Below are positions 32,308 to 44,300 of a stretch of 64,000 nt of DNA, one piece after another. This DNA comes from Escherichia coli. GTDB lineage: Bacteria > Pseudomonadota > Gammaproteobacteria > Enterobacterales > Enterobacteriaceae. A program made the position numbers. Positions within the stretch are counted from its first letter, which is position 1. Every line of letters begins with the position of its first letter. The stretch lies in the NCBI RefSeq assembly GCF_045037415.1, contig NZ_CP173438.1, one strand, 5' to 3'.

Positions 32308-35300
32308 TTATAAAAATTGCTAAAATGCTAAACCGGTTTAGGTGTTGATAATAAAGCTGACTTTTTAGCCAGAGCAATTATTTTCGCTAAACCGATTTAG
32401 TAAATGTGACAGGCACGACAAATCGGGTTACAGATACAACAGCAGGATCACTATTGTGAAGGGAGATCGTGTTGTCGGGGTAAGGCGGTCATCGCGCCTT
32501 TAGCCGTGGTCGCCAGAGCACCACAAATCTGAGCTTGTGCAATGATTCGTTCAAGCTGTCTGGTATTTGTTGGTATTCCAGAATCAGCCAGACCGGCAAG
32601 TAATCCAGCGACAAAAGCATCTCCTGCCCCGGTCGTATCGACGACAGAAACAGGTTTGGCGGGATAGTGGATAAACTGCCCCTGAAAATACACAAGTACG
32701 CCATTTTTTCCTTGTGTAATAAGCAATAAAGTCAACGGATAACGTTGTACTAATGAATATGCGCCTTGCTGAACCTGGCTTTCGTCACTGATGAATAACA
32801 ACTCTTCTTCGGACAATTTAGCGATATTCGCCAGCGAAAGCGCACGATCAAGGTATTTCCTTAACAGCGCTTCACTCTGCCAGAGATCGCTGCGGATATT
32901 GGGATCAAAACTGATGTTTCCGCCAGCCTGACGTATTTTCTCCATAGCCAGAAATGCGGTACTTCGGGAAGGTTCTGCACTGAGCGCAATGGAACAAAGA
33001 TGGAGCCATTCACCCGGCCCAAATGCAGGAAGGTCATCAGGTTGTAAAAAAAGATCGGCACTTGGGCGTACCATAAAGGTAAAGTTTCTTTCTCCTTGCT
33101 CATCAAGTCCTACAGCCACAATTGAGGTGCGATGTTGAGGATCAAGAGACATATAACGTGTATCAACATTTTCTGTACTCAGTGTTTGATACATAAAGCG
33201 ACCGAAAGGATCATCGCCAACTTTGCCAATAAAGGCACTTTTCCCCCCCAGCCTTGCGATACCGACTGCAACATTAGCAGGCGCCCCACCAGGACACTGT
33301 AGTAGTCTCCCCTGGCTTTCGGGTAATAAATCAACAACCGCATCACCGAGTACCCATACTCTTGTGCTCATAAAGGCTCCAATATACTAATTGCTAAACT
33401 AATTAAATCGGTTTAGCAATTAAAGCATAAACGCTGCTCAGGAGAGAACAATATTCAGCAGTGGTTACCCGGTATTTTGTAGTGGAAACGTGAATATGCC
33501 GGGATTAATCATCTACCCGGCACTGTTTATCTCACTTACGCATTCGACCAGCTCTGGATCGAATCCGCATTCCCCAATTCCCCATGCATCACTTCATACG
33601 ATTTTTTCAGGATCACATCAGTATGTTTGGTTAGGTCTTTGAAAATGCCTTTATTCATCGCGTCGTAGCGTTTGGCATTGCTCTCAATCGGTATGAAGAT
33701 ATCTTTCACGCGAACCATTTTATCGACAGCCGTTGTGTAATCCGGGTATAGCCCCAGACCTACCGCCGTATTGATCGCAGCCCCCAGACTTGCACAACCG
33801 TTAATGGCGTTTCGGCGTGCCGGAAGGTTGAACACGTCGGCAAAAATCTGCATAAACAGATCGCTGTTCGAACCGCCGCCAGTAATGATCACATGCTTTG
33901 CAAAGTGATTCATTTCATGACACATATTGTCGTAATTATTCTTCAGCGTCAGCGCCACGCTTTCCAGTATCGAACGATATATCCATGCGTAATCCATGCT
34001 GGAATCAAAACCGATCATAATCCCGCGTTTGTACGGTTCCCACGGATTGGTCAGCCAGTCCAGCACCGTCATCAGACCATTACAGCCAGGCGGCACGCAA
34101 GACGCTTTTTTGTTGAGCAAATCTTCCGGTGAAAGATCCTGTGCTTTGGCATCCTGAATTAACGACTCGCCTAACATGTCGCGCAGCCAGCTCACCGTCC
34201 ACATGCCTTTGCGAATACCGTAACCTTCATACAGCAATGTTTGCGGAATAGAAGACATAATCGGCCAGTACGCCACCGGATCTTTCGGCAGTGCTTTGCC
34301 GTTCATCATCAACGCGATATAGGTGCCAAGAGAAATTACCGCCGTTTCATCATCCAGTAACCCGGCTCCCAGAGCTTCTACCGGTTTATCACTGGTGGTA
34401 CAAACAACCGGCAGCCCAGCCGGGAAATGTGTCGCCAGCGCAGCTTGTGGTGTGATATGCCCAAGAATGGTGCCCGGCATTTGCACGTCAAAAAGCATCT
34501 GGCGGGGGATATTAAACTTTTCCATTACCGTAGCATCTTCGCTCCATGCCCAGCTCTTATAATCCACCGGCCACTGACCAAAATAGTTGGCGATATTGTC
34601 TTTAAACTCGCCGGTTAAGCGATGTGTCAGATAACCCGAAAAAGAGGTGACATAGGCCACGTCAGGATTAGTGTGTTCGTAAGGGCGTGTAACGCGTGCA
34701 TCCTGCCAGCTAATCAACGGCGCGGCTGGCGTACCATCGGCTTTCAATAGCGCACGGCAGCAACGGATTGAGCCCAGGCCAATGCCGACAATATCTTCTT
34801 TATTCCCGGCAAACTGGCTCATCAAATCGTGACTGGCAAAACATAGTGATGCCCATAAATCATCGTCAGGATGTTCTGCGGTATCGGCATCTGGCGTGTG
34901 CATCGGCTGCAATAAGCCTTTGCCTTCGCAAACCACATTACCTTCCAGATCGTACATCACCACTTTTGTGCTCTGACTTCCGCCATCAATCCCTATGATG
35001 TATTTTTTCGACATGATTTTTCTCCTGTAATTTTCCTGGCTTACTTGCTGCTAGCCATTGCGGGGGCGCTATCAGCAGTACGAATTTTTTGGAACAGCAA
35101 AAAGGTAAAGATGATCACCATGCCAAGCGCCGCCATGCCCATTAGCCACATGTTGCGATAGGCTTCTGCAGCGGGCAGGGTGTCTTGCCAGTAGCCGATA
35201 ATCGGGTAAACGAAGACATCCGGCAGGAATCCAATCACCGAACAAATACCTACCGTGGTGCCCATAATGTAAGACGGTGTTCTCGCTTCGCCAGGGCAGG

Positions 35301-41300: not shown

Positions 41301-44300
41301 GGACGTTGTCCTTTTTCCTCCGGGCGCGTTTGGCGATGAACTGTCGACCCGGCTGGCCTGGCGTTTACATGGTGCAAGCATCTGCCAGGTGACTTCGTTA
41401 GATATTCCAACCGTAAGCGTGCGCAAATCCCACTGGGGAAATGCGTTGACGGCGACGCTGCAAACAGACAAACGCCCGCTATGCCTTTCGCTGGCACGTC
41501 AGGCGGGAGCAGATAAAAACGCCACGTTGCCCTCTGGGATGCAGCAACTGAACATTGTCCCAGGTGTGCTTCCCGACTGGCTGGTTAGCATAGAAAATCT
41601 GAAAAATGTTATCCGCGACCCATTAGCTGAAGCCAGACGGGTGCTGGTGGTGGGGCAGGGCGGAGAGGCAGATAACCAGGAAATCGCTATGCTGGCAGAA
41701 AAGATGGGAGCCGAAGTGGGCTACAGTCGGGCACGAGTGATGAACGGTGGCGTTGATGCCGAAAAAGTGATTGGTATTTCCGGACATCTGCTGGCACCTG
41801 AGGTGTGTATTGTTGTTGGCGCTTCCGGCGCAGCAGCGTTAATGGCGGGCGTACGCAATAGCAAGTTTGTGGTGGCGATTAATCATGACGCCAGTGCAGC
41901 GGTATTTTCACAGGCAGATGTTGGCGTAGTTGATGACTGGAAAGTGGTGCTGGAGGCACTGGTGACAAACATTCACGCAGATTGCCAATAACGTGCTGCC
42001 GGATGATCCTGCCGATGGTTCTGGGCTGGGGACTTGTAGGCCTGATAAGACGCGTCAAGCGTCGCATCAGGCGCTGAATGTCGGATGTGGCGTGCAGCCT
42101 ACAAATCACACCAAATTCAACTTGTTACGATTATCCCGTCAAAGCAATTTTTTCGCTAACGTCCAGACCCCAGTATTCGTGGTGGAAAGCGCCACAACAC
42201 CCGCGTTAATCGCATTACGCGCATCTTCTTCATCGCACACCAGCCCGCCAGCAATCAGCGGTTGGCGGATTTTCTCCGTCACCCAGCCCAGCACTTTAGG
42301 CATGCAGCCTGGCAGGATCTCAATACAATCCGGATTCGATTGCGCAACTTGCTTATCAATGTTGTGAAACGAAATCGAATCAACAATAAACAGTCGATGA
42401 ATACAGAAAAAACCTTCCGCTCTTGCTGCTTTCAGCATTGAGGCTTTGGTACTGATAATTCCGTCCGCCTCGGTTACCAGTTTCAAAAACTGAATCACCA
42501 CTTCTTTATTTGACGCGCCTTCCAGCAAATCAACATGAATAAAAGCATATTTCCCGGCGTTCTTAATCTTTTTAACGATATTACTAATGGTGCAGATATT
42601 GCCGTACAACACGGAAATAAACTGGCATTCAGAGTCGATTGCCAGTTGCAGGCTGGCATTATCTTTAACGGCAGCAATCACCGGATTCTGGCGGAGCAGG
42701 TGTAAGAGGGGCATAAATTATCCTTATTATTTATCCAAAGCGGTAGGTGATGCCGAATCCGGAAGGCGGATAGCGCCACTGTTGTAGTGTTGATTCGTCG
42801 CACAGCAAACGGCAGGTGCCACACTCCAGGCAGCCGTGATAATCAACACGTAAGCCACCTTCAGGTGTGAGCGAAAAAAGACCTGCTGGACAGGCGTTAA
42901 TCAACCGTTGTGCCGTCTGGCGCTCAACGGAGTCAGTCGGAACAATGTGCGGCGCATCAGCAGCGCGCCAGAGATTACGGGCTACAGACATCGCAGACTC
43001 CTGATAACATCGCCCGTCAGATGCCACAGGCCGTGACGACGTAAATGACGCCAGAGCAACTGGCGCAGCGGTGGAACAGGTGTATTCCCCTGATCCCATA
43101 AATCACGGGAAATATCCTGCATTAACCCAGGCCACACCCGATACCAGCCAGGACGTTGCAAAAGCGCCGGAACATGCTGATAACGCTGTAGAACATCCCA
43201 CAGCAGGCTGCGCTCTACGTTGTGATGATAAAGCGGAAACAGATTTTGCGGCTCGCGGTGTTGGCAGGCGCTTATCAGCGTTTGTGCCGCCGCCTGCGCG
43301 CCAGTTAGCGCCATATCCATGCCGCGCACGGAAATTCCGGTATTGACGCAACTGCGCAACGCATCGCCCACCAGCAGCCAGCCGTTACCGGCGTATTGCA
43401 CCGGCATACTGCGCAGGCCACCTTCTGGCACCAGATGCGCACCATACTCCAGTAATTCCGTGTTTTTGATAAGCGGGCGCACTGCCGGATGCGTTTTAAA
43501 GCGAGTCAGCAGCTCGCTTGCCGGAACACTACTTTGCGTAAGGGAGGAGAGCGGGCAAACAATCCCTAACGAGAGCGTTTGTTGATTAGTATAAAGAAAT
43601 GCGCCGCCGGGTAAGTCATCACAGATCCCGCCGCTGAACAACAACGCTGCGCCTTCGTTATTCTCCAGATGAAAACGTTCTTCAATAGCGGATGGTTCCA
43701 GCGTCAGCACTTCTTTGATTCCCAATGCCATCGCTTCGCCAGCAGGACGAGTCACTAACCCGTGGCGTTCCGCCAGGACGCTGTTGGCACCTTCTGCCAG
43801 CACCACATAACGGGCGTGAAGAATATCGTCACCACAAATGACACCACACACCCTGCCGTTTTCTTCATACAGTGCATCTACCGTCGCACCGGGGATGCAT
43901 TCGACACCTTCTTTTTCGGCTTCGGCAACCAGCCACGGATCGAATCGTGCACGTAATACACTCCAGGATTCACCGCCGGGCTGTAAGCTGGAAAACGTCG
44001 TTGCGCCATCTGGCGTTAACAGAGAAAGACTTTCGTGAGTGATGCGTCGTTCAAGGGGCGCGGTCAGGTGAAATTGCGGGAGGAGTTCCGCGAGCGCATG
44101 GGTATATAAACGCCCGCCGGAAAGATTTTTGCTGCCGGGAATCTCCGCTCGTTCCAGTAACAAAACGGATAAACCCGCTCGCGCGCAGCGTAACGCGCAA
44201 GCGGTGCCAGCAATTCCGGCACCGATAATAATAATGTCGCAGTCGTCTTCCATGTCATGCCCCAGATATCCAGAACACAACACCCTAACATAGCGTTACT

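Follow-up and report, generated by a model that had tools for sequence, protein, structure and literature searches.

A four-gene core and paired terminator/antiterminator leader RNAs in the Escherichia coli ygc region suggest a catabolic module under GlpP-type control

We analyzed the ygc region of Escherichia coli in a 64,000-nucleotide stretch of contig NZ_CP173438.1 (the window). Between a scrK-type kinase gene (32451–33371) and queD (44331–44693), window positions 33536–44253 contain ten open reading frames (ORFs) that match RefSeq ygcE, yqcE, ygcW, ygcU, ygcS, ygcR, ygcQ, ygcP, ygcO and ygcN base for base (Table 1). The ORF list, RefSeq (as annotated on an identical E. coli chromosome) and Pfam are in agreement with the positions and domains given in a preliminary description of the region. 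The Pfam calls are: FGGY, two MFS, SDR, FAD_binding_4 with FAD-oxidase_C, electron-transfer flavoprotein (ETF) beta and alpha, G3P_antiterm, ferredoxin, and a FixC-like flavoprotein with an ETFQO ubiquinone-binding domain. No protein of the ten passes a curated cut-off for an NCBIfam equivalog. Of 5426 complete E. coli genomes, 5057 (~93%) cover at least 80% of the 12-kb region, and ~7% lack it. A full-text literature search turned up no paper that gives the cluster a substrate or function, in keeping with the preliminary statement that its substrate is undefined; a mention of ygcU in a paper on D-serine in enterohemorrhagic E. coli is a negative result, and as late as 2026 ygcU is still listed as a generic FAD-binding oxidoreductase. 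The “ygcO” of a review on the nitrogen-related phosphotransferase system (PTS-Ntr) is a misspelling of ycgO.

Table 1. Positions of genes, leader RNAs and promoter elements of the ygc region in the window.
Feature	Coordinates	Strand	Evidence
ygcE, FGGY-family kinase, core	33536..35014	-	Pfam FGGY_N/FGGY_C; dN/dS 0.03-0.06
yqcE, MFS transporter, anion:cation-symporter type	35041..36318	-	Pfam MFS_1
yqcE-ygcE leader RNA	36341..36415	-	covariance model R1 71.9 bits, E 1e-13
yqcE leader, U8 run	36350-36343	-	
yqcE leader, terminator hairpin	36390-36351	-	
yqcE leader, loop AGAGACCUGAGAAA	36398-36385	-	
yqcE leader, antiterminator 5' strand AAUUACU	36405-36399	-	
Extended -10 TGtTATTTC of yqcE promoter	36421-36413	-	sequence reading
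CRP-like site TGTGAGAGTAATCACG, leftward (yqcE) promoter	36440..36455	.	sequence reading
CRP consensus site TGTGATTACGATCACA, rightward (ygcW) promoter	36497..36512	.	sequence reading
Extended -10 TGcTAAAAA of ygcW promoter	36531-36539	+	sequence reading
ygcWUSRQ leader RNA	36538..36615	+	terminator scan; covariance model R1 73.9 bits, E 4e-14
ygcW leader, antiterminator 5' strand AGUUACC	36548-36554	+	
ygcW leader, loop AGAGAUAAUGAGAAA	36555-36569	+	
ygcW leader, antiterminator 3' strand GGUAACU	36570-36576	+	
ygcW leader, terminator hairpin (19 bp)	36564-36605	+	
ygcW leader, U9 run	36606-36614	+	
ygcW, NAD(P)-dependent short-chain dehydrogenase, core	36637..37422	+	Pfam adh_short; dN/dS 0.012-0.022
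ygcU, soluble AGPS-like FAD enzyme, core	37492..38946	+	Pfam FAD_binding_4 + FAD-oxidase_C; dN/dS 0.01-0.05
ygcS, MFS transporter, Enterobacterales-specific accessory	38968..40377	+	Pfam Sugar_tr
ygcR, divergent ETF beta subunit, accessory	40355..41134	+	Pfam ETF 1.7e-15; dN/dS 0.10-0.21
ygcQ, divergent short (286 aa) ETF alpha subunit, accessory	41131..41991	+	Pfam ETF_alpha + partial ETF; dN/dS 0.13-0.30
ygcP, GlpP-family RNA-binding antiterminator, core	42139..42714	-	Pfam G3P_antiterm 1.4e-62; dN/dS 0.008-0.027
ygcO, FixX-like ferredoxin, accessory, Enterobacterales only	42731..42991	-	NCBIfam FixX 83 bits, cut-off 166
ygcN, FixC-like ETF:quinone oxidoreductase flavoprotein, accessory, Enterobacterales only	42982..44253	-	dN/dS 0.08-0.13

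The spacer between the divergent yqcE and ygcW genes is 320 bp long and contains two near-consensus CRP sites, one for each operon. Both are kept in 17 enterobacterial genera, the yqcE-side site as TGTGA-N6-TCAC, and each promoter has a conserved extended -10 element. The same spacer ranks second among published genome-wide CRP predictions (PMC1794230). Assuming class-II geometry, in which the start lies 41.5 bp from the center of the CRP site (for ygcW, 36504.5 + 41.5), transcription is predicted to start at ~36406 on the yqcE side and ~36546 on the ygcW side.

Just downstream of the predicted start, each of the two operons opens with a leader of ~70 nt in which an intrinsic terminator competes with a 7-bp antiterminator closed by a loop, AGAGAnnnUGAGAAA. 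The first seven to nine nucleotides of the leader (AGUUACC for ygcW, AAUUACU for yqcE) are complementary to part of the terminator 5′ arm, the loop measures 14–15 nt, and in both leaders the terminator and its U run sit between promoter and start codon. The calculated folding energy of the terminator is −34.2 kcal/mol (z −6.4) in the ygcW leader and −22.3 kcal/mol (z −4.1) in the yqcE leader, compared with −6.7 and −1.4 kcal/mol, respectively, for the antiterminator alone, a weakness that is expected if a protein must stabilize the antiterminator. The yqcE-ygcE leader is present as one copy in 5063 of 5426 E. coli genomes; RefSeq annotates nothing over it, and a search of Rfam 15 gave no gathering-level match in the region, with chance-level matches only at E ≤ 1. 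No extra leader copies were found in E. coli by blastn, which is too insensitive even to cross-match the sister leader. The mechanical ORF list contains a longer ygcW frame (286 residues) starting at ATG 36562, inside the leader terminator; of the two, the start at 36637 given in the annotation, which GGAG precedes by 8 nt, agrees with the conserved leader. We rejected a possible pairing of the ygcW Shine-Dalgarno sequence with a partner further upstream, since that partner lies before the predicted transcription start.

We scanned one genome per species with a YgcP alignment, which yielded 80 loci, and searched these with the ten E. coli proteins. The unit that is conserved consists of ygcP, ygcE, ygcW and ygcU, usually with a transporter, and is found in at least four phyla (Proteobacteria, Firmicutes, Actinobacteria and Spirochaetes): the four genes occur together in Enterobacterales, Vibrio, Clostridia, halophilic Bacilli, Streptomyces, Saccharopolyspora, Arthrobacter, Spirochaetes and one alphaproteobacterium. 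Identities to the E. coli proteins across phyla are high for such distances (YgcW 60–79%, YgcU 56–71%, YgcE 43–58%), and YgcP is 42–63% identical to the homologues that adjoin the core in other phyla. The ETF genes ygcRQ are limited to Enterobacterales and some anaerobes, and ygcN, ygcO and ygcS to Enterobacterales; in Pantoea/Erwinia, Vibrio, Bacilli and Actinobacteria the core occurs with no dedicated ETF. When neighboring ORFs were clustered all against all, no further recurrent enzyme emerged, only transporters, ETF, a second oxidase, SurE and LacI, and the neighbors of the clostridial loci are unrelated (glycosidases, GGDEF proteins, sporulation genes), with no added pathway enzyme or methyltransferase among them. 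The pathway therefore seems to need only the kinase, the SDR and the flavoenzyme.

Ratios of nonsynonymous to synonymous substitutions (dN/dS) were computed against Citrobacter and Yokenella, where dS is saturated and the values are rough. They are 0.01–0.06 for the core, as low as for queD and cysJ, which indicates strong purifying selection, and 0.08–0.30 for ygcR, ygcQ, ygcO and ygcN, which evolve 3–10 times faster than the core. As judged by these ratios, the electron-transfer part is a functional, faster-evolving accessory. An apparently unusual divergence of ygcR and ygcQ within the species was discarded, the “E. coli” genome compared being divergent throughout (dS 0.23–0.49 even in cysJ and queD). 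The preliminary picture of ten genes forming one coherent module thus survives in part: synteny across phyla, one common leader RNA and purifying selection on the core speak for a module, but the conserved unit is not the ten genes. The comparison with other genera that had been proposed as a check divides in the same way, as ygcP, ygcE, ygcW and ygcU travel together widely but the ETF genes, the fixCX-like genes and ygcS are lineage-restricted.

Two loci, from Serratia microhaemolytica and a Ruminococcaceae metagenome-assembled genome, carry close YgcP homologues (L034 7431–7988 and L042 10001–10537; 70% and 63% identity) with neither core genes nor leader within 10 kb; the homologue may be orphaned there or act at a distance. 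In both Spirochaete loci (L050 16523–17305; L051 8480–9262) a gene for a SurE-family phosphatase/nucleotidase directly follows ygcE and is followed in turn by an OpuAC-type binding-protein gene.

The leader accompanies the core across these phyla. It is present on both sides of the spacer in 17 enterobacterial genera, and also in Clostridia, Bacilli, Vibrio, Actinobacteria and Spirochaetes, where copies precede ygcW operons, ygcE or MFS operons and BCCT transporter genes or, in Clostridia, lie internally before ygcU. A covariance model built on the terminator structure (R1) finds exactly two sites in the window, the two leaders of Table 1, and gives full-length matches in all 47 loci that possess the core and the relevant spacer; at E ≤ 1e-3 it matched none of 15 GlpP loci that do not contain the core. 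When 62 copies are aligned by MAFFT without regard to structure, pairing in the antiterminator helix is 89% and six of its seven pairs change on both sides; RNAalifold independently recovers the terminator base with compensatory variants (GAGGAAAG/CUUUCCUC in Bacilli, GAGAACAG/CUGUUCUC in Actinobacteria). In the 74-sequence model alignment, 93.4% of cells are paired in the antiterminator helix (both-side changes at 6/7 pairs, 43 cells) and 97.7% in the terminator base (4/10 pairs, 29 cells), and 0/500 shuffles reach the score of either helix. Pairing of the antiterminator drops to 17–56% if its 3′ partner is slid by one to three columns. The two helices overlap, the 3′ strand of the 7-bp antiterminator being part of the terminator 5′ arm, and one alignment column covaries with partners in both helices, which is what a two-state switch predicts. 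It is well supported that the leaders, which the preliminary description does not mention, represent a previously undescribed class of terminator/antiterminator RNA with mutually exclusive helices, and very probable that they act in cis as RNA switches.

In four clostridial operons a further leader copy lies between ygcE and ygcU (L045 5192–5286, minus strand; L046 16484–16578, plus; L048 11436–11530, plus; L041 7159–7230, minus), and three of these copies have a terminator hairpin of unusual length; from its position, the flavoenzyme/ETF half can therefore be gated apart from the kinase/SDR half. True glycerol-type GlpP loci without an R1 match (L072 3062–3130, L074 7583–7650, L061 9892–9953, L077 708–775 and L079 10608–10683) show, by eye, a 5-bp stem around tandem GAGA repeats (UUGAGAUUGAGAGC, UGAGAUGAGGAGA) that overlaps a terminator. 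In the Blautia locus among them (L061), glpP is followed by DAO+Fer2_BFD, Pyr_redox_2 and DUF1667 genes. Tandem (A/U)GAGA repeats may be a family-wide RNA code of GlpP proteins.

Among the core enzymes, YgcU departs most from its first assignment. It had been described as GlcD-like; its nearest relative by both sequence and fold is alkyl-dihydroxyacetone phosphate synthase (alkyl-DHAP synthase, AGPS), with an R/Y/HHH set in place of EHG. YgcU combines a FAD domain of VAO/PCMH type with a cap domain. AGPS is the best match of a single-sequence search of solved structures (2e-40), and a profile of YgcU orthologues ranks it at 1.7e-60 in the Protein Data Bank (PDB), ahead of glycolate oxidase (2.9e-37), LDHD (8e-27), LctD and D2HGDH. 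In the profile alignment AGPS R419, Y578 and H615–617 correspond to YgcU R262, Y398 and H438–440, none of which varies among 17 orthologues from four phyla; PDB entries 4bc7 and 4bca carry mutations of Arg419 and Tyr578. Where D-lactate/glycolate-type enzymes have EHG in the cap domain, YgcU reads HHHG, and the NCBIfam GlcD model scores 144 bits on it against a cut-off of 568. A Foldseek search with the AlphaFold model (predicted local distance difference test score 79) also places AGPS on top, with template-modeling (TM) scores of 0.78–0.81, compared with 0.73–0.76 for D-lactate dehydrogenase; these values are close, so that the fold alone is not decisive and the argument rests on the motifs. 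YgcU has 484 residues, its position 49 aligns with AGPS residue 204, and the ~200-residue N-terminal domain of AGPS is missing, so that the protein is AGPS-like and not an AGPS. A published AGPS phylogeny left out proteins shorter than 500 residues. From its sequence, YgcU appears to belong to an unexplored bacterial, non-lipid branch of the AGPS flavoenzyme family.

YgcE is nearest to the autoinducer-2 kinase LsrK among solved structures (1.6e-28), followed by glycerol kinases, and stays below every NCBIfam equivalog cut-off; for YgcW the nearest NCBIfam model is the KduD equivalog (349.9 bits, under the cut-off of 369); and YgcP matches G3P_antiterm (PF04309) over its full length and PDB entry 3kts at 1.2e-27. 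Three of the four core proteins point, through their relatives, to glycerol-phosphate or DHAP-type ligands. In the clostridial loci whose sequence reaches beyond the ETF genes (L041 279–3826, L045 369–1820), these genes are followed by a second FAD-linked oxidase, of the D-lactate dehydrogenase type (TEHGVGK). L041 also encodes another ETF pair, in which the alpha subunit carries a ferredoxin domain at its N terminus, like that of the Ldh-EtfAB complex. These additions hint at a 2-hydroxy acid as a pathway product in anaerobes.

The chain that the preliminary description called FixABCX-like falls into two halves. YgcN and YgcO are clearly FixCX-like: YgcN scores 385 bits with NCBIfam PRK10015 and 366 bits with FixC (both below the cut-offs) and carries the Pfam ETFQO_UQ-bd domain (2.5e-7). 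YgcRQ, on the other hand, has diverged strongly from other ETFs and does not appear to be of FixAB type in particular. YgcR has no NCBIfam match at 1e-10 and is closest in the PDB to the Paracoccus ETF (1.6e-10), and YgcQ to the human ETF (9.5e-23), so that the top matches of both are canonical one-FAD ETFs, by small margins; FixB-type models score 61–70 bits, against cut-offs of ~530–550. The label therefore clearly fits half of the chain only. We take Fix, Ydi and Ygc to be the only ETF sets of E. coli. The ETF and quinone reductase may supply what Bacilli and Actinobacteria obtain from general-purpose systems or oxygen.

Evidence on the substrate comes mainly from the transporters that accompany the core. 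YqcE matches TIGR00893, the D-galactonate transporter subfamily, weakly, and YqcE-like MFS genes occur in 22 of 34 core loci, including those of Actinobacteria, Spirochaetes and Vibrio. Outside Enterobacterales, the core is joined to BCCT carriers in Vibrio, three clostridial loci, Halobacillus, Salibacterium and Prauserella, and to ABC systems of the OpuAC type in Gracilibacillus and Salsuginibacillus; the Spirochaetes have a binding protein of this type. In most such loci the BCCT or Opu genes lie behind the same leader or within the same operon, an exception being Prauserella (L067), where the BCCT gene is upstream of the leader. Solved relatives of BCCT and Opu proteins bind glycine betaine, choline, carnitine, dimethylsulfoniopropionate, trimethylamine or ergothioneine; structure searches with an Opu binding protein and a BCCT returned generic relatives only, from which no specific ligand can be read. 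YgcS is a homologue of NiaP whose overexpression raised the formation of nicotinamide mononucleotide (NMN) from nicotinamide (PMC8601175), the only experimental datum on any ygc gene that we found. The BCCT/OpuC partners, the YqcE-like MFS carriers and the YgcS result together speak for a substrate that is small, hydrophilic and cationic or zwitterionic rather than an ordinary sugar acid or a neutral polyol. Assignment to an onium or zwitterionic, glycerol-like class is tentative, and we hold it at somewhat less than even confidence.

We propose that the region is a substrate-inducible, catabolite-repressed catabolic module controlled by CRP and by YgcP-dependent antitermination, and place moderate confidence in this overall scheme. 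Both cAMP-CRP and antitermination would be needed for expression: two divergent CRP promoters would start two transcripts, each of which would almost immediately form a strong intrinsic terminator. YgcP loaded with a phosphorylated intermediate would bind the purine-rich loop (AGAGA/GAGAA) and stabilize the weak 7-bp antiterminator, thereby sequestering the terminator 5′ arm and allowing read-through into yqcE-ygcE and ygcW-U-S-R-Q. The substrate, proposed to be a small, hydrophilic onium or zwitterionic compound with a glycerol-like diol, would enter by an MFS carrier in E. coli and by BCCT/OpuC systems in other phyla. YgcE would phosphorylate it to a glycerol-3-phosphate-like ester, the putative inducer, which the SDR YgcW and the AGPS-like YgcU would turn into a product at the level of DHAP. 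If the flavin of YgcU is reduced, electrons would flow through the ETF YgcRQ to YgcN/YgcO and on to quinone, a lineage-specific add-on in E. coli. Binding of the leader by YgcP is suggested by their co-occurrence and by the precedent of Bacillus subtilis GlpP; from the evidence set out above we further infer what the inducer is, to which class the substrate belongs, in what order the enzymes act and which way electrons flow.

Several points weigh against this scheme. The literature search found no experiment that ties YgcP to the leaders, and no inducer or growth phenotype. The covariation shuffles take no account of phylogeny, and within a locus the two leaders are paralogous. Both transcription starts are placed from promoter geometry alone. 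The ygcN-O-P operon, in which ygcP sits, has no leader in the R1 search, which leaves control of YgcP unexplained. The E. coli cluster contains no BCCT or Opu gene, the onium assignment having been transferred from other phyla. AGPS itself is not a net redox enzyme and is awkward beside a dedicated ETF, and in clostridial L041 and L045 the second oxidase that follows the ETF genes could be the true ETF partner.

A more specific version of the scheme, which we regard as speculative and unlikely, has YgcU, as a tunnel-less AGPS relative, splitting the C1–X bond of a 1-substituted DHAP by covalent flavin chemistry. This would be the logic of ether-lipid synthesis in reverse: X-CH2-CHOH-CH2OH would be phosphorylated by YgcE and oxidized at C2 by YgcW, and YgcU would split the product into DHAP and free X, with YgcP sensing a glycerol-3-phosphate analogue. 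X would be an ether-linked betaine, ammonium, sulfonium or similar leaving group.

The reading closest to the preliminary description takes the ten genes as equal parts of a pathway in which a sugar acid, polyol or 2-hydroxy acid is taken up, phosphorylated and then oxidized by a GlcD/D-lactate dehydrogenase-type YgcU, with electrons passing through a FixABCX-like chain to quinone. The domain content fits, YgcN/O are clearly FixC/X-like, enzymes of the D-lactate dehydrogenase type do use ETF (LctD-EtfAB, 7qh2; LDHD), and ETF genes stand directly after ygcU in Clostridia and after ygcS in E. coli. However, YgcU has HHH for EHG and retains Arg and Tyr as in AGPS; the core of Bacilli, Actinobacteria, Vibrio and Pantoea/Erwinia comes without ETF; the transport partners elsewhere are BCCT/OpuC systems and not sugar-acid carriers; and YgcRQ is no closer to the bifurcating, two-FAD Fix type than to canonical ETFs in its PDB matches. 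We judge such a pathway improbable.

Still less probable is a chain running in the reductive direction, in which YgcN/O and YgcRQ feed electrons from quinol or NADH to YgcU for anaerobic reduction of a substrate and the cluster is an electron sink. Reductive roles of this kind have been proposed in E. coli for FixABCX with CaiA and for YdiQRST with YdiO; the other two FixCX/ETF sets of the species go with reductive reactions, and the ETF genes are found mainly in facultative and strict anaerobes. Against this, a kinase, a phospho-sensing antiterminator, CRP control and uptake transporters make up a typical carbon-catabolic layout, and in aerobes the core works without any ETF. That E. coli retains the cluster only as a cryptic or decaying remnant with no present function, its leader hairpins being ordinary terminators or REP-like palindromes, would agree with the lack of any reported phenotype, the fast evolution of the ETF/FixCX genes and the ~7% of genomes without the region, but we consider it very improbable: dN/dS of ygcW, ygcU, ygcP and ygcE (0.01–0.06) is like that of queD and cysJ, the ETF genes are still below 0.3, and the leaders keep compensatory changes across phyla and sit upstream, not downstream, of genes.

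The proposed module, with its CRP- and YgcP-dependent control, has a close counterpart in the glp regulon of B. subtilis (glpD, glpFK and glpTQ leaders), in which a phospho-ester made by a kinase activates an RNA-binding protein that overrides a terminator in the 5′ untranslated region; this GlpP/glycerol-3-phosphate paradigm is described in PMC9604022. GlpP and YgcP both belong to PF04309, and in both cases catabolite control lies on top. The ygc targets differ, comprising a distinct kinase, an SDR and an AGPS-like flavoenzyme instead of glpF/K/D/T/Q, and the YgcP ligand is presumably not glycerol-3-phosphate itself. The glp-type leaders sampled in Clostridia resemble the ygc leaders by eye in their short stem, tandem GAGA repeats and terminator overlap, but R1 does not match them, which marks the ygc leaders as a distinct sequence family. 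In E. coli the true glp genes are under the GlpR repressor.

YgcU shares with AGPS (ADPS) its best sequence and fold match and the R419, Y578 and H615–617 loop residues, and in eukaryotes an SDR, acyl/alkyl-DHAP reductase, is a neighbor of AGPS in the pathway. However, YgcU is 24–26% identical to AGPS enzymes, which have 580–660 residues and an N-terminal lipid-tunnel domain that YgcU does not have, and ygcU adjoins ETF genes, a kinase and solute transporters, which is not a lipid-synthesis context. With E. coli fixABCX (which goes with caiTABCDE) and ydiQRST the region shares the set of ETF alpha and beta, FixC-like flavoprotein and ferredoxin; YgcN/YgcO are close paralogues of FixC/FixX and YdiS/YdiT, and the pathway compound would elsewhere be carried by a BCCT, as carnitine is. 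In contrast, YgcRQ is far more divergent than FixAB, the ygc partner is a VAO-family flavoprotein and not an acyl-CoA dehydrogenase, and the ygc genes are split over two convergent operons. LctBCD of Acetobacterium woodii likewise encodes a FAD_binding_4/FAD-oxidase_C enzyme beside EtfB and EtfA, and clostridial ygc loci also carry an EHG-type oxidase and, in L041, a ferredoxin-domain EtfA; but the motif set of YgcU is that of AGPS, the N-terminal ferredoxin domain is missing from YgcQ, and there is no lactate permease or racemase. In the Brucella erythritol pathway (EryA kinase, EryB FAD dehydrogenase) and in glycerol catabolism (GlpK, GlpD), a polyol is phosphorylated by an FGGY kinase and the polyol phosphate is then oxidized by a flavoenzyme to a ketose phosphate, the electrons entering the respiratory chain. 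EryB and GlpD are DAO-family enzymes, whereas YgcU is of the VAO/AGPS family, and the ygc module differs further in lacking isomerases and in its onium-type transporters.

The ygc genes are among the larger uncharacterized metabolic blocks of the near-core E. coli genome. The gene list was already known at the level of annotation; what the analysis adds is the kind of system, in which GlpP-type antitermination would control a new pathway, and a module that is older and more widespread than its E. coli version suggests. Since the four-gene core is common to Clostridia, halophilic Bacilli, Actinobacteria, Spirochaetes and Vibrio, its substrate is probably an abundant and widespread compound that has been overlooked, and the leader/YgcP pair could be used as a ready-made biosensor to find it. 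C1–X cleavage, if true, would amount to a new and widespread salvage route for glyceryl-onium or glyceryl-ether compounds, for example the head groups of betaine lipids, and could release amines or betaines in the gut.

In three E. coli genomes (NZ_CP107164, NZ_CP020116 and NZ_CP023849) an otherwise identical ygc region is found in two pieces spanning 12.8–17.7 kb, and in one of these strains the span includes annotated genes for a type VI secretion Vgr protein and an M23 peptidase; insertions into the cluster therefore occur. In the convergent gap between ygcQ and ygcP, at 42030–42075, lies a palindrome, TGTAGGCCTGATAAGACGCG...CGTCGCATCAGGC, which we take to resemble an E. coli REP/BIME element. 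Next to ygcE, window positions 27000–33371 contain a complete sucrose phosphotransferase regulon (LacI-type regulator, sucrose-6-phosphate hydrolase, IIBC component, porin and PfkB kinase), whose PfkB kinase is the scrK of the preliminary description and is named aminoimidazole riboside kinase in RefSeq. A whole-window Rfam scan also located the small RNA CsrB at 7677–8036 (plus strand, 382.9 bits) and a sok antitoxin RNA at 49456–49612 (plus strand, 104.3 bits), beside an annotated Hok/Gef gene (~49597–49749).

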